From a virus (taxonomy: Duplodnaviria; Heunggongvirae; Uroviricota; Caudoviricetes), in the IMG/VR virus record IMGVR_UViG_2534682158_000010, positions 1-30,878 of that record: a DNA stretch of 30,878 nt. One strand, given 5' to 3'. Below are positions 8,001 to 30,878 of this stretch, one piece after another. The notes under the pieces are model-generated. The model made no database searches and was not told the DNA's origin. It saw only the letters and a program-made list of their open reading frames with translations. Within the stretch, counting starts at the first letter, position 1, and the number at the start of each line of letters is the position of its first letter. Both the position numbers and the translations under genes were made by a program.

Positions 8001-11000
8001 GAAACGATAGGTGATCCGGCGATAGTACAGGTCCATGTCAGTACATACGCGGTCCATATCCCTGATTATTGAGAAGATCGGACGGGCTTTCTCGTGCTCA
8101 ATCACGCCGTCTTCATTGACCGAGGTCGTTACGCCATTGTTGGCTTTGGCCGCCGCTTCCGCCTGCTGACGCAATTCTTCATACGCCGCCAGTTGTTCTT
8201 CAGTAAGTGGTGCATCCTGCTGGTGTTCGTCCAGCTCCGGGATCTCCACGGTATCCTTAACGTCTTCCGCCGTTTTAAGCGTTACCCAGCGATGGAATAT
8301 ACCGCGCAGCGCATCAAGGTTTTCAAAGCCCACCAGCGCCATTTTTTCTTCAACTTCACCGCTAATTTTCTGTACCGTTTCCAGCCTGGTCTTGCCGAAG
8401 AATTTAACGAAGTCATCAGGACCGTAGATCCCCATGTTCTGCCAGTATTCCTTCGGCAGAACATGAGAAAGCATGTTGTATGCATCGATCGGGGTGTTAA
8501 CGACTGGCGTTGCAGTCAGGAGAACCGGCCCGCGCCCACCATTCTTTTTCATCAGGTACGCGTTTTTAATTGCCATATCTCGCGCCGATTGCGCCACCGC
8601 GCTGGTGGGCAGATAGGCCAGTTGTGACGCTTCGCGACCATTTTTATAGCTATTGCGGTAGTTGTGACCTTCGTCAGCGATCACACTATCGAAGCCCATA
8701 TCCTCAAAGTACGGATACTTCTCTGCTTTTTCGGTGCCGGTATCTGAATACTCCGACAATACCCGGCGACGCGCGGCCTCTTTGCGGTGGGAGTCGGAGT
8801 CCATTGCGCTGGCTACGCGTCCGGCGGCAACGAAGTCATAAAGCATATCCTGTGCATGCTCATCTACGGTGTCATCACGTAGCGGAATGCGGGCGTATTG
8901 TTCTTTGGTAAACACGACTGCACGGTAATTTGAGTGCGGGATCGCGTTCATCCGCGCCGTGATAGTGGCTTCATCTGCCAGCTTAAGAGCATCGCGCATA
9001 ACTGGAGTGCCATCAGTACCAAGAACAGGTTTACCGTTCTCATCGAGCACCTGCACCTGGCGAATCTGATCGCCATCCATCAGCACATCAAGACCGACGA
9101 ACAGGTAGTTACTGAATGCCTCTTCACTCAGGAATTCTTTTGCTTCGTAATACCAGTTTTCCAGCACTGATTTAGGCACTACATACGCAGTACGGGTGGA
9201 GCGACCGTTCTCATAGTTGAACGCCTCAAGCGCCAGCGCGGTCGTGGTTTTACCCAGCCCGGTGCCGAAGCCCAGGATGCCGCGCCCATCTTCGGACAGT
9301 CGGCGCACCTCGCTATTCTGGTAATCAAATGGCTGGCGCTTACCGCTTAATCCCTTCAACCCAAGCGGATCGCCAGAGTGTTCATACGGGATATTGCTAT
9401 TGAACACATCGTTGTATTTAGCAACCAGCTCATCGTAGCGATCGTGCGTCTTGATCCACTTATTGAACTGGTCCTCAAGCAGTGCCATCTGCTCGCGGTA
9501 GCCGTTCGCCGTCGCGCTATCTTTGCCACCGATACGCGCACCATTGAGATACTTTTCCAGCTGTGCCGGGAACCCGGTCGCGTTTTCACCTGATTTACGG
9601 TCCCACTCGTAGCGGATCTCGCCTGTTTCTTTATCCTTACGCTGGACGACACCGTATCGGTGCCCGACGAACAGGCCATCACCACCGTGATAGGTGTCAG
9701 AAACCATTTCGTCGCCTTCCAGCTGCACTGACTGCACATAGCGCAGATCCGGATAGCCGTTTTCCTGCAAAAACTCCAGAATGACGGAACGGTCGAACCA
9801 ACGGCTATTGAGCTTAAAGCGGATATTCTCTGCTGGCGTCTTGATGCGCTTCTCTTCGATCGCTGCCAGCTGATTAAGGACGTTGTTCTTTACTGGACCG
9901 TCGGGGAGCGTGGCGAGGAATTCCTGTTTTGGAGCCACTATCTCGTTAATGTCGCCGCTGGTGGCGCGGGCGAACGGAACAATCCCGCCATACGGTGAAA
10001 CCGCAATGCCAGGGGTGCTGGCCAATAAATTAAGCAACTCGTCATCACTGGCTGGCAGTTCGCCGGTAAACGCAAGGCGGAAATCATCGAGCTGGATTGG
10101 ATCGCGAGTGAGATCACTGTAGAGATAACGCAGGGTGTCCTGATAGCTGGTGGAGTCATAACTGGCGCTGGAATCATGCGTAACCAGTTTTCCTGTCAGC
10201 TCGTCAGAAATAGTGCCATCCAGCTTAATTGCACCACGGAAAGCAAACCAGGCGCGCGCACCGCTCCCCGATAATTTCGCTATCGGACCGCGACCGGGGT
10301 TACCAAAACGGTCAATCTCTGCCTGCAAACGGGATACCAGAGAAAGGCGCTGCTGTTCGATTTGTTCAGCACTATGCCCGGCGGCCTTCATGTCCTGATA
10401 TTCAATTAACATCCGGCCAATCATCGCCCCGCGATACAAGCGTTCACGGTATTTTTCAGGCTGGCTGTTAATCCAGTCCACCAGCTGCACCATATCGTCG
10501 CTGATTGATGTGGTGTACTTATCGCGGACATTTGCCATCTGGGTAAATGTCATGCCGAGACGGCCTTCTGTTGTAGTCAGGTTACGCTGAAGAGCCTCCC
10601 AGCTATCCGCGCCATAACTGGCAGCATCGATCTTAAGTTCCTTCCCTGCATCAGCTTCAATCCAGCGACCACCAGCATATTTTTGCCATACGCCATTAAT
10701 CAGGCGCATTTCCCCTTCACCAACAACGTCTGCGGTCGGTGACGGTTCAGCCATATCGAGCAAAGACCAGTCGATACGGCTTTCGAAACGATGAATCAGC
10801 TTCGCTTTAAGAGCCTGGTTATCAATCTGACCGTCGGCACGAACCTCAATACGCCCCTGGAAGCCCTTTTCCTGGGTGCCATGAACAAACCGGCGGCCGT
10901 CCTTTTCAAACCACTTGCCAGAAATAAACGTTGGCCAAAGCACATTTGCCGATTCGAGAGTGCTTTCATCCACCAGGGGGATTTTCTCAGCCATCTCTGC

Positions 11001-11838: not shown

Positions 11839-11860
11839 TAACAAGTGACTAGTGTTAAAT
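11839..11860 (+). promoter_or_regulatory. Late-promoter-like element AACAAGTGACT plus -10-like TTAAAT upstream of prt
   Basis: Motif shared with the mat-like and lyz upstream regions; embedded in the inverted repeat TTAACA-N9-TGTTAA in the 75-bp darB/prt divergent region. Confidence 0.45.
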
Positions 11861-11894
11861 TCCGTTCAAACACGATGCGAATTATTCTAATTAA

Positions 11895-15474: not shown

Positions 15475-15562
15475 AAAGACCTCATAAGCGAATTTTTTAC
15501 GCTCCAGGACAAACACTCATTCACAGCCAATACCGACTGACTCGATCCCTTTAGAAGGCACA

Positions 15563-15586
15563 GGATAATGCAAATCACTTGTTAGC
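15563..15586 (-). promoter_or_regulatory. Late-promoter-like element (AACAAGTGATT plus TATCCT) on the minus strand upstream of lyz
   Basis: Reverse complement of 15573-15586 gives GCTAACAAGTGATT, followed 5 nt later by TATCCT; same architecture as at mat-like and prt. Confidence 0.4.
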
Positions 15587-15607
15587 TACGTTTCAAAGAT
15601 ATACATT

Positions 15608-24768: not shown

Positions 24769-24842
24769 AAGTTCCCTCCTACGTTGTCAGGAGGTAATGG
24801 TATGCAAAGTAACTTCTCAACCGGTTATGTTGCATAAGAGAC

Positions 24843-25106
24843 TTACCTATTCAACCGACTTTTGGAACCTTCAATAATAAGCCTGCTATTGGCGCTGAAA
24901 ATAAGAACCATGCAGCTCTGAAGGCTTTCATTCATGTCCTTATATTCCGCGAGATACATGCCAATAAAGCCAGCAAGTACGGCGGAAATACATTCGGCCA
25001 GCAATTTCTTGCATGAAGACTCGTAACGGTTTTCACATAGCCCACTCAAATACGAATACACCCCACCAAGAAGGGATAACATCACGATATGTACATAAAA
25101 TGTCAT
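24843..25106 (-). CDS. Hypothetical small membrane protein (87 aa) upstream of the holin
   Basis: AGGT SD at 5 nt; two hydrophobic segments; possibly a further lysis-cluster gene. Confidence 0.4.
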   Translation of the reverse strand: MTFYVHIVMLSLLGGVYSYLSGLCENRYESSCKKLLAECISAVLAGFIGMYLAEYKDMNESLQSCMVLIFSANSRLIIEGSKSRLNR

Positions 25107-25233
25107 TTTTTACCTATACAACAGTAAGTTGAACAACATTTGAGAACGGTATGCACTTTGTGATTTCCACACACACTGGTTTTGTTAATTAAAACCTGTA
25201 GCTTGCAATAAATAACGATAGTGGGCAGAAAAT

Positions 25234-25420
25234 ATGCTAATAGGCTATGTACGCATATAGACAAATGAACAAAACACAGCTATGCAGTGAAAAGCACTTG
25301 AAAGCGCAGGATGTGAGCTAATTTTTGCGAATAAGGCGAGCAGCAAAAAAGCTGGGCACCCTGGGTTAAAAAAGGTTCTGCGTATGCTTTCCAGAGGTGA
25401 TACCCTAGTCTCGGACTAGG
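25234..25420 (+). pseudogene. Decayed 5' remnant of a Cin/Gin-family serine invertase gene
   Basis: Translates to MLIGYVRI*TNEQNTAMQ*KALESAGCELIFANKASSKKAGHPGLKKVLRMLSRGDTLV with in-frame stops; the catalytic serine codon is replaced by a stop; homology ends near 25420. Confidence 0.6.
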
Positions 25421-25541
25421 GACAACATTTCGAGAACAGTTTTCATTAGCGGCCAGCAGGCGCTAGATACATCGAATTGATGTGCCGCGCGATAAATGTA
25501 CCTATTCTATCAAGATAAATTACACCGACGCGGCATTAGAA

Positions 25542-26114
25542 TTACAGCTCAGATTGAGTTTGGCGCTTCTCTACAGGATGATAACGATAAATCGTCGATA
25601 CACCGATATCGTAAATAATTGCCAACTGTTTCCTGCTGTAGCCATTTTCGATCAACCTCGCTATTTGCTCATGTTGTTCTTTTGTCAACTTCGGGCGACG
25701 TCCGCCAATGCGTCCCTGTTCGCGTGCAGCTGCCAGTCCGGCCAGTGTTCTCTCAACAATTAATTCACGTTCCATTTCTGCTAAAGCACCCATGACATGA
25801 AAAAAGAAACGCCCCATGGGTGTTGATGTGTCAATACTGTCTGTCAGACTACGGAAATTAACACCTTTTTCCCGCAACTCCTCTATAAGCGTGATAAGGT
25901 GTTTCATACTTCTGCCAAGCCTATCCAGCTTCCAGACAACCAGCGTATCTCCTTCTGATAACGTTCTGAGCAGCTTTTTCAAGCCTGGTCTGGCTGACTT
26001 TGTTCCGCTTATTTTATCTTCAAAAATCAGTTCACATCCTGCGCAGTTCAGTGCATTTCTTTGTAAATCTGTGTTTTGGTCATTTGTTGACACACGAATG
26101 TAGCCAATTTGCAT
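25542..26114 (-). CDS. Gin/Cin/Min-family serine DNA invertase
   Basis: 190 aa from ATG 26114 (AGAGG SD); catalytic motif IGYIRVSTNDQ, conserved core VVWKLDRLGRSMKHL...SLTDSIDTSTPMGRFFFHVMGALAEMERELIVERT, C-terminal HTH. Confidence 0.93.
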   Translation of the reverse strand: MQIGYIRVSTNDQNTDLQRNALNCAGCELIFEDKISGTKSARPGLKKLLRTLSEGDTLVVWKLDRLGRSMKHLITLIEELREKGVNFRSLTDSIDTSTPMGRFFFHVMGALAEMERELIVERTLAGLAAAREQGRIGGRRPKLTKEQHEQIARLIENGYSRKQLAIIYDIGVSTIYRYHPVEKRQTQSEL

Positions 26115-26168
26115 GAAAAACAACCTCTTTGTTTAGTTAAAAATACATCGTTGGTATAGGTAGGGATT

Positions 26169-26194
26169 AAGACTAAAACGTTGGTTTGGGGGAA
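26169..26194 (+). other. Invertase crossover site s1 (26 bp), at the 5' end of cassette B'
   Basis: AAGACTAAAACG-TT-GGTTTGGGGGAA; fits the Gin-family 12-2-12 architecture. Confidence 0.7.
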
Positions 26195-26653
26195 GGCTCA
26201 GCATTGCCCGTTGGCGTGCCCGTTCCGTGGCCCTTAGAAACACCACCAACGGGCTGGCTGAAATGCAATGGTGCAGCATTTTCTTCTGAAAAGTATCCAA
26301 ATCTGGCAAAGGTTTACCCCACCAATAAATTGCCGGATTTACGCGGTGAGTTTATTCGCGGCTGGGATGATGGGCGGGGGATTGACTCTGGCCGTAATTT
26401 ATTATCTGCACAGAATGATGCAATTCAGAATATTGTTGGTTCTTTCGGGCGTACTCAGCTTTTTAGAGATGTACTTAGTTCAGGGCCATTTAGTCAACAT
26501 GGTCAAGTATTATCTACAGGCCTAAAGGAAACGGAAATTATTGAGGGTTATGGCGCTTATAACTGGACATTCGACGCCTCTCGCTCAGTTCGTACAGCAT
26601 CTGAAACCCGCCCACGCAACATTGCGTTTAATTACATCGTAAGGGCAGCATGA
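26186..26653 (+). CDS. Silent tail-fibre C-terminal cassette B' (tail-collar domain)
   Basis: No genuine start (in-frame with the crossover site); conserved N-terminal GEGSALPVGVPVPWP...LPDLRGEFIRGWDDGRG and C-terminal RPRNIAFNYIVRAA. Confidence 0.75.
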   Translation: MGEGSALPVGVPVPWPLETPPTGWLKCNGAAFSSEKYPNLAKVYPTNKLPDLRGEFIRGWDDGRGIDSGRNLLSAQNDAIQNIVGSFGRTQLFRDVLSSGPFSQHGQVLSTGLKETEIIEGYGAYNWTFDASRSVRTASETRPRNIAFNYIVRAA

Positions 26654-26672
26654 AAACGTTGGTTTGGGGGAA
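26647..26672 (+). other. Invertase crossover site s2
   Basis: AGCATGAAAACG-TT-GGTTTGGGGGAA; spans the stop codon of cassette B'. Confidence 0.7.
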
Positions 26673-27167
26673 GGCTCGGCGCTGCCCGTTGGCGTGCCTG
26701 TTCCATGGCCCTCAGCCACACCGCCAACGGGGTGGCTGAAATGTAACGGAGCAGCATTTTCTTCTGAAAAGTACCCAAATCTGGCAAAGGTTTACCCAAC
26801 GTTAAAATTACCTGATTTACGCGGTGAGTTTATCCGTGGTTGGGATGATTCGAGAGGGATTGATACAGGGCGTTCATTGCTAAGTGGTCAGACTGCAACA
26901 TTTATTCGTACAGCTTTGCAGGATTATTACGGTGTCGATCTGACTACTAATGTCAAAGTAGGTATCGCTTATGCTACTGCTGATTCTGTTATAACTGTTG
27001 GAAACCCTGCTAATCCTAAAGCAGGAGATAATAGCGATTATGTTCCAGCATCAGCAGATAACTCCATAACAGGCACTCAAAGGACGGCAGAGGATAATTT
27101 TACCGGGGCATGGATATCAATGCGCCCCCGCAACGTTGCTTTTAATTACATTGTAAGGGCCACATAA
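26664..27167 (+). CDS. Silent tail-fibre C-terminal cassette E
   Basis: Same conserved ends, unique central region (QTATFIRTALQDYYGVDLTTNVKVGIAYATADS...). Confidence 0.75.
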   Translation: MGEGSALPVGVPVPWPSATPPTGWLKCNGAAFSSEKYPNLAKVYPTLKLPDLRGEFIRGWDDSRGIDTGRSLLSGQTATFIRTALQDYYGVDLTTNVKVGIAYATADSVITVGNPANPKAGDNSDYVPASADNSITGTQRTAEDNFTGAWISMRPRNVAFNYIVRAT

Positions 27168-27186
27168 AAACGTTGGTTTAGGGGAA
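27161..27186 (+). other. Invertase crossover site s3
   Basis: CACATAAAAACG-TT-GGTTTAGGGGAA. Confidence 0.7.
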
Positions 27187-27207
27187 GGCTCGGCGCTGCC
27201 CGTTGGC

Positions 27208-27675
27208 GTGCCTGTTCCATGGCCCTCAGCCACACCTCCAACGGGGTGGCTGAAATGCAATGGTGCAGCATTTTCTTCTGAAAAGTACCCAAATCTGGCA
27301 AAGGTTTACCCAACGTTAAAATTACCTGATTTACGCGGTGAGTTTATCCGTGGTTGGGATGATGGGCGAGGGATTGACTCTGGTCGCTCTATTTTAAGCG
27401 AGCAAGGATATGCAACGGAGGATCATGCTCACGGATTACCGTCAAAATCAACCGTAGCAACTGACCGCTCAATTAATTTCTACTTTGACGAGGCATGGGC
27501 TACTAGTGGTAATACGGGAGTTATCAGATGGGGGAACACAAGCGATGCAGGATTGCCAGCCCCTAATTATGGAACTTTTAAAACATATAAACAGTCCGTA
27601 GCTAATTTAGGTACTGCTGGCTTAGAAACCCGCCCTCGTAATGTTGCATTTAATTATATTGTGAGGGCGGATTAA
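27208..27675 (+). CDS. Silent tail-fibre C-terminal cassette D
   Basis: Open frame actually begins at the crossover site near 27175; unique central region (GYATEDHAHGLPSKSTVATDRSINFYFDEAW...). Confidence 0.75.
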   Translation: MPVPWPSATPPTGWLKCNGAAFSSEKYPNLAKVYPTLKLPDLRGEFIRGWDDGRGIDSGRSILSEQGYATEDHAHGLPSKSTVATDRSINFYFDEAWATSGNTGVIRWGNTSDAGLPAPNYGTFKTYKQSVANLGTAGLETRPRNVAFNYIVRAD

Positions 27676-27680
27676 TTATA

Positions 27681-28292
27681 TCAACTGGCTGTAGAAAGTT
27701 GTTTTTCAGGCCAGTTGAGATCTGGTGCCGTGGTTAAATCCATCGCGTTCAGCTCGTCTATATAATCTAGCACGGAGTTAAGCTGTGTGGTTTCTGCCTG
27801 CGTCAACTTCCGTCCAGCCTGTAATTTCAACTGAATCAGACTAATGGAAGCCATCGCAGTATCAATCAATGACTGACGTTTTGTTTCTGCTGCCTCTACA
27901 GCTGCACTATGTTGAGCCTCAGTATCAACCACCCATTTCTCTCCATCCCATTTGTCGTATGGTGTTAGCGGGGCGATAGTGGTTGTATTTTCCGGATAGT
28001 CACCCAACACCGTGATTTCTTCGGGATTCCCAGTGTCAATGCTATAGACAGTTTCGCCACGATGATCTGGCACATACTCCCATGAACTTAAATCCTCTGA
28101 ACGGAGAATCGCATAACCTGCTTTATGTGAGCCTGGAGCATCCAAACAAGAATTTGCCGGAATACCAACGCCAACAGCAAGATATTCAGTTGATGCAGAA
28201 ATATATTCCCGATTACCACCATCATAGTTATAAACGATAATGTTTCCTGCCTGTATGGCTATAAGTTCGCTATTTAATATCGCATTATCCAT
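27681..28292 (-). CDS. Tail fibre assembly protein (Tfa / U-like chaperone)
   Basis: 203 aa; C-terminal region LIDTAMASISLIQLKLQAGRKLTQAETTQLNSVLDYIDELNAMDLT typical of Tfa proteins; start overlaps cassette C stop (TAATG). Confidence 0.85.
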   Translation of the reverse strand: MDNAILNSELIAIQAGNIIVYNYDGGNREYISASTEYLAVGVGIPANSCLDAPGSHKAGYAILRSEDLSSWEYVPDHRGETVYSIDTGNPEEITVLGDYPENTTTIAPLTPYDKWDGEKWVVDTEAQHSAAVEAAETKRQSLIDTAMASISLIQLKLQAGRKLTQAETTQLNSVLDYIDELNAMDLTTAPDLNWPEKQLSTAS

Positions 28293-28750
28293 TATGCTGC
28301 TCTCACAATATAATTGAAGGCAATGTTACGTGGGCGGGTTTCATTCCCCCCAGATAACTCCGTTCTGTATTGACTGGTAAATTTACCATTAATCGCTCCT
28401 TCTTGGACGGCGTTATCTGTCGACAACAGACTATCCCCCCCTCTGTCATTTGGCACCAATACCGTGTTATCCCACGCGTCCCATGACCGAATATTATGAT
28501 AATGACTTCCTGTTAACCACCCCTGTATGCTTAAGATGCCCCTTCCCGCATCCACACCTCGCCCATCATCCCAACCACGGATAAACTCACCGCGTAAATC
28601 AGGTAATTTTAACGTTGGGTAAACCTTTGCCAGATTTGGGTACTTTTCAGAAGAAAATGCTGCTCCGTTACATTTCAGCCACCCCGTTGGTGGTGTGGCT
28701 GAGGGCCACGGAACAGGCACGCCAACGGGCAGTGCCGAGCCTTCCCCCAA
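28292..28750 (-). CDS. Silent tail-fibre C-terminal cassette C, translationally coupled to Tfa
   Basis: Conserved ends; unique centre (GWLTGSHYHNIRSWDAWDNTVLVPNDRGG...). Confidence 0.75.
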   Translation of the reverse strand: MGEGSALPVGVPVPWPSATPPTGWLKCNGAAFSSEKYPNLAKVYPTLKLPDLRGEFIRGWDDGRGVDAGRGILSIQGWLTGSHYHNIRSWDAWDNTVLVPNDRGGDSLLSTDNAVQEGAINGKFTSQYRTELSGGNETRPRNIAFNYIVRAA

Positions 28751-28767
28751 ACCAACGTTTTCATGCT
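28742..28767 (-). other. Invertase crossover site s4
   Basis: Plus strand reads TTCCCCCAAACC-AA-CGTTTTCATGCT. Confidence 0.7.
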
Positions 28768-29267
28768 GCCCTTACGATGTAATTAAACGCAATGTTGCGT
28801 GGGCGGTTTTCGTTTGCAGTTGGAACAATTTTTGAAGCATCAAGGCCAATCACTTTTGGGTAAACAGCGCCGTCTGTCCTTTCTGTCACCATACTTCTGA
28901 CTAAGGAAAAATAACTATTGTTTGTTGAGGGAGTTAAAGGCACCACTGCCCCCTTAAACGAGCCTACTGATTCCCATATTGAATAATTTTCAGTATTTAC
29001 AGTCTTGAACTCACCATAGATATTACGTATGGCATCACCTTGAGCGGATAATATTGTTCTCCCCGCATCCACACCACGTCCGTCATCCCAGCCGCGAATA
29101 AACTCACCGCGTAAATCCGGTAATTTATTGGTGGGATAAGCCTTTGCCAGTTCTGGGTATTCTTCAGCAGAAAAAGCTGCTCCGTTGCATTTTAGCCAGC
29201 CTGTTGGCGGAGTGGCTGAGGGCCATGGAACAGGTACGCCAACAGGCAATGCTGAGCCTTCCCCCAA
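28761..29267 (-). CDS. Silent tail-fibre C-terminal cassette A' (near-identical copy of A)
   Basis: 168 aa; differs from cassette 29756..30262 at 2 residues. Confidence 0.75.
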   Translation of the reverse strand: MGEGSALPVGVPVPWPSATPPTGWLKCNGAAFSAEEYPELAKAYPTNKLPDLRGEFIRGWDDGRGVDAGRTILSAQGDAIRNIYGEFKTVNTENYSIWESVGSFKGAVVPLTPSTNNSYFSLVRSMVTERTDGAVYPKVIGLDASKIVPTANENRPRNIAFNYIVRAA

Positions 29268-29284
29268 ACCAACGTTTTCATGCT
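29259..29284 (-). other. Invertase crossover site s5
   Basis: TTCCCCCAAACC-AA-CGTTTTCATGCT. Confidence 0.7.
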
Positions 29285-29745
29285 GCCCTTACGATGTAAT
29301 TAAACGCAATGTTATGGGGGCGTGTTTCAGATGCTGTGCGAACTGAGCGAGAGGCGTCGAATGTCCATACAGAAGCACCATATCCTTCAATGATCTCAGT
29401 TGGTTGTAAGCCTACTGATAATATAGAGTCAGTTTGACTAAATGGTCCTGAATTAAGCGCATCTTTAAAAAGCTGAGTACGCCCAAAAGTGCCAACTATA
29501 TTCTGAATAGCGTCAGACTGTGCAGACAGTAGGTTGCGCCCATTATCAACGCCCCGTCCGTCATCCCAGCCGCGAATAAATTCGCCCCGTAAATCCGGTA
29601 ATTTATTGGTGGGGTAGGCCTTTGCCAGATTGGGGTACATTTCAGAAGAAAATGCTGCACCGTTACATTTCAGCCACCCCGTTGGCGGCGTGGCTGAGGG
29701 CCATGGAACGGGCACACCAACGGGCAGTGCAGAGCCTTCCCCCAA
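29278..29745 (-). CDS. Silent tail-fibre C-terminal cassette B
   Basis: 155 aa; divergent paralogue of B' (26186..26653); C-terminal motif carries H in place of R (ETRPHNIAFNYIVRAA). Confidence 0.75.
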   Translation of the reverse strand: MGEGSALPVGVPVPWPSATPPTGWLKCNGAAFSSEMYPNLAKAYPTNKLPDLRGEFIRGWDDGRGVDNGRNLLSAQSDAIQNIVGTFGRTQLFKDALNSGPFSQTDSILSVGLQPTEIIEGYGASVWTFDASRSVRTASETRPHNIAFNYIVRAA

Positions 29746-29762
29746 ACCAACGTTTTCATGCT
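29737..29762 (-). other. Invertase crossover site s6
   Basis: TTCCCCCAAACC-AA-CGTTTTCATGCT. Confidence 0.7.
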
Positions 29763-30262
29763 GCCCTTACGATGTAATTAAACGCAATGTTGCGTGGGCG
29801 GTTTTCGTTTGCAGTTGGAACAATTTTTGAAGCATCAAGGCCAATCACTTTTGGGTAAACAGCGCCGTCTGTCCTTTCTGTCACCATACTTCTGACTAAG
29901 GAAAAATAACTATTGTTTGTTGAGGGATTTAAAGGCACCACTGCCCCCTTAAACGAGCCTACTGATTCCCATATTGAATAATTTTCAGTATTTACAGTCT
30001 TGAACTCACCATAGATATTACGTATGGCATCACCTTGAGCGGATAATATTGTTCTCCCCGCATCCACACCACGTCCGTCATCCCAGCCGCGAATAAACTC
30101 ACCGCGTAAATCCGGTAATTTATCGGTGGGATAAGCCTTTGCCAGTTCTGGGTATTCTTCAGCAGAAAAAGCTGCTCCGTTGCATTTTAGCCAGCCTGTT
30201 GGCGGAGTGGCTGAGGGCCACGGAACAGGTACGCCAACAGGCAATGCTGAGCCTTCCCCCAA
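29756..30262 (-). CDS. Silent tail-fibre C-terminal cassette A
   Basis: 168 aa; conserved ends, unique centre (GDAIRNIYGEFKTVNTENYSIWESVGSFKG...). Confidence 0.75.
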   Translation of the reverse strand: MGEGSALPVGVPVPWPSATPPTGWLKCNGAAFSAEEYPELAKAYPTDKLPDLRGEFIRGWDDGRGVDAGRTILSAQGDAIRNIYGEFKTVNTENYSIWESVGSFKGAVVPLNPSTNNSYFSLVRSMVTERTDGAVYPKVIGLDASKIVPTANENRPRNIAFNYIVRAA

Positions 30263-30279
30263 ACCAACGTTTTCATGCT
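30254..30279 (-). other. Invertase crossover site s7
   Basis: TTCCCCCAAACC-AA-CGTTTTCATGCT. Confidence 0.7.
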
Positions 30280-30878
30280 GCCCTTACGATGTAATTAAAT
30301 GCGATATTTCGCGGCCTGACAGCAACAAAATTTATACCATCACCTACAGAGTTACTGGTGAAATTAAATCGTGAAAATCCTGGCTGATTTCCGACGATGC
30401 CATCATGAAAATTAATTGCGTGCCCCGCACCATCACCTATATTTCCGGCACGCTGAGAAAAGTTTGTAGCCTCTTGGCTGCTTAATAATGCTCGCCCATT
30501 GTCCACACCTCGTCCATCATCCCAACCTCGAATAAATTCGCCCCGTAGATCCGGCAATTTATTGGTGGGGTAAACCTTTGCCAGATTTGGGTACTTTTCA
30601 GAAGAAAATGCTGCTCCGTTACATTTCAGCCACCCCGTTGGCGGTGTGGCTGAGGGCCACGGAACAGGCACACCAACGGGCAGCGCCGAGCCTTCTCCTA
30701 AACCAAGGTAATCAAGAACGCTCTGAATACTGGTCTTACCAAGAATGGCGCGTCCAACACTTGTCAATGCAGTTAACGCGGCACGATCAACACCTGTGAA
30801 ATAAGGGAGTTTATCTGCTGCTGTAGCTAGTGCCGCTAGGGCAGTGAGCGTAGCGTCTGCCGCTTGCTTTCCATTAGC
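30273..30878 (-). CDS. Tail fibre protein S, 3' portion: constant part fused to the currently expressed cassette F (5' end beyond the window)
   Basis: Frame is open from the window edge (ANGKQAADATLTALAALATAADKLPYFTGVDRAALTALTSVGRAILGKTSIQSVLDYLGLGEGSALP...) through cassette F; the TTG at 30767 is not a real start. Confidence 0.85.
   Translation of the reverse strand, partial: ANGKQAADATLTALAALATAADKLPYFTGVDRAALTALTSVGRAILGKTSIQSVLDYLGLGEGSALPVGVPVPWPSATPPTGWLKCNGAAFSSEKYPNLAKVYPTNKLPDLRGEFIRGWDDGRGVDNGRALLSSQEATNFSQRAGNIGDGAGHAINFHDGIVGNQPGFSRFNFTSNSVGDGINFVAVRPRNIAFNYIVRAA
30693..30718 (-). other. Invertase crossover site s8 at the junction of the S constant part and cassette F
   Basis: TTCTCCTAAACC-AA-GGTAATCAAGAA; the best-palindromic of the eight sites. 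Confidence 0.7.

Follow-up and report, generated by a model that had tools for sequence, protein, structure and literature searches.

Two kinds of invertible tail-fibre locus have been described that resemble the element analysed here. The Min system of p15B, a plasmid of E. coli 15T- (Sandmeier, Iida and Arber, 1990–1992), is a multiple-inversion array, for which 240 isomers have reportedly been published; a truncated cin gene is said to have been described beside its min gene by Sandmeier in 1991. In P1 and Mu, each variable segment of the tail-fibre gene S is paired with a U (or Tfa) chaperone gene of its own. P1 no longer plates when U is knocked down but can do without the silent U′ (PMC10695390), and Tfa proteins bind the fibre through their N-terminal domain and trimerise through a conserved C-terminal domain (PMC9608196). 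We analysed a 30,878-nucleotide stretch of a Caudoviricetes genome (positions 1 to 30,878 of IMG/VR record IMGVR_UViG_2534682158_000010; hereafter the window), in which a single tail-fibre assembly gene, tfa, is embedded in eight exchangeable tail-fibre cassettes. An earlier note on this DNA was correct in setting the arrangement against that of P1 and Mu, and its picture of one tfa, linked to one cassette and reversed by inversion, is upheld below; it had not recognised the known p15B Min architecture. The reading that we find best supported, by a modest preference, is that one generic Tfa serves all the tips.

A p15B Min-type array with eight crossover sites

The window carries a P1-like phage-plasmid backbone, with a 2255-aa open reading frame (ORF) of DarB size, a darA-like gene and lyd/holin genes, followed by a serine invertase gene. 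Eight tail-collar cassettes (A to H; Table 1) fill the stretch from the invertase gene to the end of the window, with tfa between cassettes C and D. The invertase is identical in sequence to UniRef entry Q05517_ECOLX, 'DNA-invertase', and is present on at least 1000 contigs; in PLSDB, the invertase, the tfa or both occur in about 200 records. Next to the invertase gene lies what is left of a second one, a 5′ fragment that all examined P1-like relatives carry in the same position and that is probably the counterpart of p15B psi-cin. The remnant comprises the first ~60 codons and is oriented towards the array. The equivalent region of plasmid pMCR_SCKP-LL83 shows 99% identity at 92% coverage to p15B min and has one tfaE listed, and this sister plasmid has been described as carrying a 5-kb putative invertible C-segment (PMC5786510).

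The invertase, the psi-cin remnant, the site-headed cassettes and the sister-plasmid report together identify the locus as a p15B Min-type multiple-inversion array, the comparison with p15B min (X62121) being made via the published identity of the sister plasmid. The features of this type are present: a Din-family serine invertase adjoins the array, more than two crossover sites occur in both orientations, one constant 5′ part is joined in frame to the 3′ cassette H here and to other cassettes in relatives, and inversion is seen in near-identical plasmids, which, rather than the window molecule, provide the evidence for it. The locus is therefore of a known kind, a p15B Min array combined with a gp37/Stf-type tip and Tfa module, here with eight sites. 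Cassette number in relatives ranges from 2 to 17.

One tfa gene for eight cassettes

Judged by its sequence, the ORF between cassettes C and D is a Tfa/U-type tail-fibre chaperone gene with a predicted chaperone activity. Its product matches PF02413 over residues 78–197 with 105.6 bits (cut-off 22.1); a sequence search of Tfa against the PDB gave no match. A profile hidden Markov model (HMM) trained on 100 diverse sequences of Tfa and Tfa′ hit this ORF alone among the 372 stop-to-stop ORFs of the window (E=5.8e-62; the next ORF had E=1.6), which confirms the earlier claim of a single tfa for eight cassettes. That note had also named a second tfa just beyond the window as one finding that would overturn it; in related complete plasmids none lies beyond S, and homologues of R, gene 16 and bplA are found there instead.

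As the note had stated, tfa sits between the plus-strand and minus-strand cassette groups and its ATG falls on the stop of one cassette. This cassette, which the note called C, is our cassette D, whose TAA overlaps the tfa ATG (TAATG; ...GCAGCATAATGGAT...). On the other side, cassette C is convergent with tfa and the two stops are 5 nt apart. The gene thus follows a fibre tip gene directly and in the same orientation, and this junction is kept in nearly every relative for which upstream sequence is available. The reading frame is open from the window end via ...SVLDYLGLGEGS... down to the stop of cassette H at 30273, so cassette H is fused to the constant part of S and is the one currently expressed. 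This stop is followed after 1,981 nt by the tfa ATG, in line with the ~2 kb given earlier.

Tfa is 99–100% identical in the P1-like relatives examined (L001–L008, L082 and L084; L numbers designate related loci), and PLSDB matches to a composite min and tfa query are mostly at least 99% identical at the DNA level. D and tfa are linked in every intact array examined. In L084 the overlap is broken by an error-ridden assembly, and in L085 tfa is truncated. At positions 10587–10805 of L085 (NZ_CP128256.1), a 218-bp junction replaces cassette C and the 3′ two-thirds of tfa, fusing a plus-strand cassette start to the 5′ part of tfa and leaving the array without an intact tfa.

Cassettes resemble complete gp37/Stf-type tips

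The seven cassettes scanned (B to H) all match the collar profile PF07484, with E values of 9e-16 to 2e-14, and cassette A shares their invariant N-terminal part. The earlier note had pointed to an invariant 14-aa C-terminus. This segment is indeed conserved, but only 11 of its 14 positions are invariant (RPH is present in F and NV in B and C, and the final residue varies among A, T and D), and the N-terminal ~76 aa are equally conserved. The distinct variable parts number only six because two pairs are near-duplicates, with an identity in this part of 99% between E and G and of 78% between A and F. E and G are near-copies in direct orientation, while A and F are inverted relative to each other; such duplicates could support deletions or Min-independent homologous inversions.

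Phmmer searches with cassette D matched a short tail fibre (9CUY, 1.6e-17) and the tip of T4 gp37 (2XGF, 6.3e-14). The alignment to 2XGF falls into two parts, one covering D residues 5–69 and the other the last 21 residues (132–152, ...NIAFNYIVR), where sequence alignment points to the returning C-terminal strand of the collar. In T4 gp37, residues 811–881 and 1010–1026 form the collar-like domain D10, and the needle D11 is an insertion (PMC6957217). By this alignment, the flanks of each cassette (N-terminal 76 aa and C-terminal 14 aa) would be the two halves of one collar domain, and each cassette appears to be a complete tip of the T4 gp37/lambda Stf type, with its variable middle as the insert. 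An AlphaFold2 (AF2) monomer model of D, computed from the eight-cassette alignment, had a mean predicted local distance difference test (pLDDT) score of 34. Because the 14 aa align with the end of gp37 that completes the collar, they are first of all a structural element. The earlier suggestion that they might serve as a generic Tfa recognition tag is to be revised in this respect.

Every inversion toggles the chaperone gene

The eight crossover sites, three on the plus and five on the minus strand, stand one at each cassette 5′ end. The general site spans 26 bp, AGCATGAAAACG TT GGTTTGGGGGAA, and reaches into the stop codon of the cassette before it; at the S junction the left half of the site is different. 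The 26-bp frame, the half-sites and the TT core are what we take them to be by analogy with the gix/cix consensus. All plus-strand sites lie to the left of tfa and all minus-strand sites to the right, so that both cassette groups converge on the centre, C> <Tfa-D.

We enumerated all states reachable via inversion between oppositely oriented sites, which gave 240 isomers for six sites, the figure for p15B, and 10,080 for eight. The sorted arrangement of the sites was invariant throughout these states and the central segment flipped with every inversion, so tfa is in sense orientation to S in exactly half of them. Since no crossover site separates the two, tfa stays with cassette D; D adjoins S and is followed by tfa in 7.1% of states. 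Cassette C also adjoins S in 7.1%, and tfa is always antisense there. The toggling of the sole chaperone gene is a simple consequence of this topology. We found no discussion of it in the literature searched, which lay outside the original p15B papers.

The reversal of tfa relative to S, which the earlier note had anticipated, is borne out both by the enumeration and by natural isomers. PLSDB was searched with a composite query (min, filler and tfa) and sampled evenly along the ranking. In 16 records min and tfa were joined on the same strand, in 12 tfa matched in a separate place, and about 20 had min only; within the last group, the records examined showed a different tfa type, only one cassette or a deletion (L085–L087). 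Antisense orientation was confirmed in all three of the separate-place records checked (NZ_CP145648, p1303_95 and p160070-MCR). The antisense loci include L082, L205 and L206; more come from the IMG/VR contigs L004–L006, and contig L003 is a sense isomer. Constant S followed by D and tfa is the state of L008, L016 and L018, and cassette C adjoins S in plasmids L006, L083 and L205. Antisense tfa occurs naturally at a roughly even frequency. One relative, L012 (IMGVR_UViG_2541047915_000010, positions 8565–10609), contains two D-tfa units, inverted head-to-head, whose cassette starts overlap; the arrangement is a genuine palindromic duplication or else an assembly artefact of mixed isomers.

Expression signals and selection on cassette C

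A box resembling the P1 late promoter, AAGTNACTW followed by TANNNT, was derived from the sequences that precede lydA and prt in the window and R in a relative. Its only recurrences are at 11843–11861 (+), 15572–15592 (+), 15562–15580 (−) and 24797–24815 (−), and given this restriction the four palindromic-box sites are probably P1 late promoters. A CTGGCA-16-TAAAAT match in D was considered as a dedicated tfa promoter and rejected, since its position is within the shared N-terminal part and the D cassettes of other lineages do not conserve it.

The arginine of the ...IVR... ending, whose codon lies 9–11 nt ahead of the tfa start, is encoded by AGG or AGA in every one of 213 cassettes; for the arginine of RPRN, 188 of 204 have CGY. 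The AGR codon fits a Shine-Dalgarno-like element, which may allow tfa initiation without translation of D. This rare codon (28301–28303 in D) is also kept by internal cassettes that are not followed by tfa.

For the variable part of cassette C, the ratio of nonsynonymous to synonymous divergence (dN/dS) against a Tfa-coupled homologue is 0.14, with dS ~1. Within P1-like arrays the comparison has no power, the variable parts showing 0–2 differences. The low dN/dS of the whole cassette was discarded as a sign of selection on C, since it stems from the shared collar part.

A generic chaperone is the favoured reading

To see how Tfa and tips are paired elsewhere, we scanned IMG/VR with Tfa and obtained 79 loci; in those that include upstream sequence, the tfa start codon nearly always overlaps a collar-cassette stop. 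The 71 usable Tfa-cassette pairs fall into 15 cassette types by variable part. Tfa pairs that are 96–97% identical accompany variable parts that are 26–35% identical, which equals background. Five of the six window cassette types (A/F, B, C, D (L010–L021) and E/G) have Tfa-coupled (TAATG) homologues in other loci; none was seen for cassette H among the scanned loci. A second sample, drawn by the cassette 3′ end and independent of tfa, comprised 147 cassette ends. Directly downstream there was tfa in 102 and a crossover site, marking an internal array cassette, in 35; three were at the central C position, six were on contigs too short to judge, and one had nothing recognisable after it. Non-array tips are therefore practically always accompanied by tfa (102 of 103), which argues against chaperone-free folding. 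Between the two options of the earlier note, a generic Tfa and folding of most cassettes without a chaperone, these pairings tilt the balance to the former, and a Tfa that serves all tips is the reading we would back, if by a narrow preference.

In the mechanism we propose, the chaperone would be matched to the conserved collar framework rather than to the variable insert, and because it fits the collar, one gene could serve every cassette. D-tfa and cassette C together form the central segment, and each Min inversion flips tfa. In the window isomer tfa is in sense with S and would be reached by read-through from a late promoter upstream of R and S, across ~2 kb and four untranslated cassettes. 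Translation of tfa would then rely on a Shine-Dalgarno-like AGR codon of its own, at the 3′ end of the cassette. Antisense isomers would either lack the chaperone or be supplied with Tfa by a route invisible in the sequence. On this basis the array could be a two-layer switch, determining which tip is made and, through the sense or antisense state of tfa, whether the chaperone is made; we regard this extension as possible but doubtful.

Should tfa expression depend on orientation, fibre-defective particles, or fibres without bound Tfa, would be the product of half of the 10,080 isomers, and this half would include all isomers expressing cassette C. A second inversion sparing the S junction would restore competence with the same tip.

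Several observations weigh against a generic, orientation-dependent Tfa. Some 40–45% of natural isomers carry tfa antisense. The late-promoter box is absent from both strands of 26124–30878, and sigma-70-like and terminator-like matches in 25000–30878 are no commoner than in shuffled sequences; with neither signal in the array, tfa of the window isomer would be reached by read-through. The AGR pattern is shared by descent, the cassette 3′ ends being homologous, and the cassettes are therefore not independent observations. Cassette C can be expressed only with tfa antisense, yet it is intact and has a dN/dS of 0.14, so that co-transcription with S is not the whole story: either tfa is supplied independently of orientation, or C does not need tfa, or C is carried along by topology. 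Finally, D-type cassettes and all arrays go with a 203-aa Tfa subclade, which shares ~77% identity with the 200-aa subclade found beside most other cassette types, and Tfa may have some specificity for D.

The last point leads to the alternative that fares best, namely that Tfa is the private chaperone of D, as in a classical Sv-U pair, and that the other seven cassettes fold without a phage-encoded Tfa. The start/stop coupling of tfa to D alone, the constant company of D-type cassettes and the 203-aa subclade, and the abundance of antisense isomers would all fit, as would a cassette C that looks constrained although it is never expressed with sense tfa. L085, with its tfa truncated by a deletion, persists as a plasmid, but it is a noisy deletion derivative and uninformative on phage function. 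Against a private chaperone stand the homologues of A/F, B, C and E/G, each of which is coupled to Tfa in other prophages, and the regular presence of tfa behind non-array tips. The N-terminal 100 aa of Tfa, the fibre-binding half, are on average 87.5% identical across unrelated cassette types, compared with 93.6% within a type. The 203-aa subclade also pairs with one non-D cassette type (L009). T4 gp37, which has the same collar, requires gp38 (PMC3004832). We therefore consider a private chaperone unlikely.

Less likely still is that all cassettes need Tfa but orientation hardly matters, because in antisense isomers Tfa comes in trans from tfa genes of resident prophages, or from an unrecognised weak promoter. 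Lambda Tfa is able to replace T4 gp38. Tfa relatives that are 78–84% identical abound in enterobacterial prophages (at least 593 confirmed IMG/VR stretches), and cross-complementation is plausible given how little Tfa varies from one cassette type to another; the constraint seen in cassette C is compatible with such a supply. On the other side, scans of the array yielded no promoter, the promoter-like match in D is unconserved in other lineages, and dependence on prophages would make infectivity a matter of the host.

That the array is a decaying relic of a mainly plasmid-living element, its single tfa a leftover without functional logic, seems very improbable: deletions or frameshifted cassettes occur in some relatives (L083, L084 and L085) and P1-like plasmids with modified or missing tail-fibre regions have been described (PMC6906374), but the frameshifted examples resemble low-quality assemblies, the window has tfa and all eight cassettes in intact form, the crossover sites are conserved, the many isomers among near-identical plasmids indicate active recombination, and the centre with one tfa is conserved in a second phage lineage, where arrays with one tfa beside D occur in ~35-kb prophage contigs (L015, L018 and L020).

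The preferred reading, a generic Tfa, has a practical side. If one Tfa folds many unrelated inserts on a common collar, the array would be a natural plug-in scaffold for host-range engineering, in which only the insert is exchanged and the chaperone is kept. The array also poses the question of how a chaperone is supplied when every inversion reverses its gene. Elements of this kind are frequent in E. coli, Salmonella and Klebsiella, and resistance genes, mcr-1 among them, are present on some, which gives the logic of their host range practical weight.

Feature coordinates and further observations

The positions of the features are collected in Table 1.

Table 1. Features of the inversion array and its flanks (window coordinates)
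Feature	Position	Strand	Remarks
psi-cin, remnant of 5′ part of second invertase gene	25234..25410	+	tblastn with window invertase, residues 4–62, 63% identity
min-type serine DNA invertase	25542..26114	−	190 aa from ATG; PF00239 E=2.2e-51, PF02796 E=3.5e-15
Crossover site of A	26169..26194	+	Outermost, adjoins min; ...TAAGACTAAAACG TT GGTTTGGGGGAA
Cassette A, silent	26186..26653	+	PF07484-type collar; variable part ~78% identical to F; Tfa-coupled homologue L048
Crossover site of B	26647..26672	+	Overlaps stop of A; AGCATGAAAACGTTGGTTTGGGGGAA
Cassette B, silent	26664..27167	+	PF07484 E=3.9e-15; Tfa-coupled homologue L064
Crossover site of C	27161..27186	+	Variant TTTAGGGG
Cassette C, silent, central	27178..27675 (alternative start 27208)	+	PF07484 E=1.7e-14; ends ...RAD; HxH motif; Tfa-coupled homologues L034/L037/L044
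tfa, tail-fibre assembly gene	27681..28292	−	203 aa; PF02413 (Caudo_TAP) E=2.7e-30
Cassette D, silent	28292..28750	−	PF07484 E=4.9e-15; HxH motif; stop overlaps tfa ATG
Crossover site of D	28742..28767	−	
Cassette E, silent	28761..29267	−	PF07484 E=9.1e-16; variable part 99% identical to G; Tfa-coupled homologues L045/L067/L077
Crossover site of E	29259..29284	−	
Cassette F, silent	29278..29745	−	PF07484 E=8.2e-15
Crossover site of F	29737..29762	−	
Cassette G, silent	29756..30262	−	Collar-type cassette; near-copy of E
Crossover site of G	30254..30279	−	
Cassette H, expressed 3′ end of S	30273..30698	−	PF07484 E=1.2e-14
Crossover site at junction of constant S and cassette H	30693..30718	−	TTCTTGATTACC TT GGTTTAGGAGAA; left half from constant part
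Constant part of tail-fibre gene S, 3′ end	30719..30878	−	Runs off window; matches S proteins of L001/L002

Just after the collar, the two central cassettes alone have an HxH motif (DHAHG in C and SHYHN in D), which resembles the metal-binding motifs of T4 gp37 and gp12. In A, E, F and G its place is taken by an NIxGxF motif, which the 9CUY short tail fibre also has. In L005 (5792–6265), the cassette at the central C position joins a body of another type (ALLNWQPHTI...) to the C-type ending ...RAD; this chimera shows homologous exchange among cassette bodies, independent of the crossover sites. Similar ORFs of 51–58 aa (MGKPLPDLGTFQKKML...) run antisense to the conserved cassette starts at 26632–26799 (−), 27146–27313 (−) and 28615–28782 (+), and are most likely a by-product of the repeated sequence rather than genes.

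Comparison with known systems

The closest relative of the locus is p15B Min, with which it shares a P1-like backbone, a Min serine invertase beside a truncated cin, overlapping invertible segments and 3′ cassettes on a constant tail-fibre part. It differs in having eight sites and cassettes, 10,080 formal isomers and two near-duplicate cassette pairs. The shufflon of R64 (Rci, PilV) likewise uses invertible cassettes to give alternative C-termini to one adhesin gene, but its recombinase is a tyrosine recombinase, the adhesin belongs to the pilus of a conjugative plasmid, and there is no chaperone gene.

The two-state systems P1 Cin/C, Mu Gin/G and e14 Pin/P have in common with the window a Din-family serine invertase, a crossover site inside S, the convergent arrangement and the association of a variable 3′ part with a Tfa/U chaperone. 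In these systems two sites separate two Sv parts, each with its own U; the window departs from this pattern of two sites and one chaperone gene per variable part, with eight sites and one tfa that is antisense in half of the isomers. Among the relatives, 'class II' loci consist of a collar cassette and Tfa facing a divergent Tfa′, and the 200-aa Tfa subclade sits in such classical two-state segments.

At the level of the fibre itself, the cassettes resemble the tips of T4 gp37 and lambda Stf in their collar flanks around a variable middle and in their ...NIAFNYIVR(L/A)A C-terminus. In this family of receptor-binding proteins a conserved assembly protein is encoded directly downstream (PMC9659904), as tfa is here. 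The T4 gp37/lambda Stf family has one tip and one chaperone per phage, whereas in the window eight exchangeable tips share one chaperone gene.

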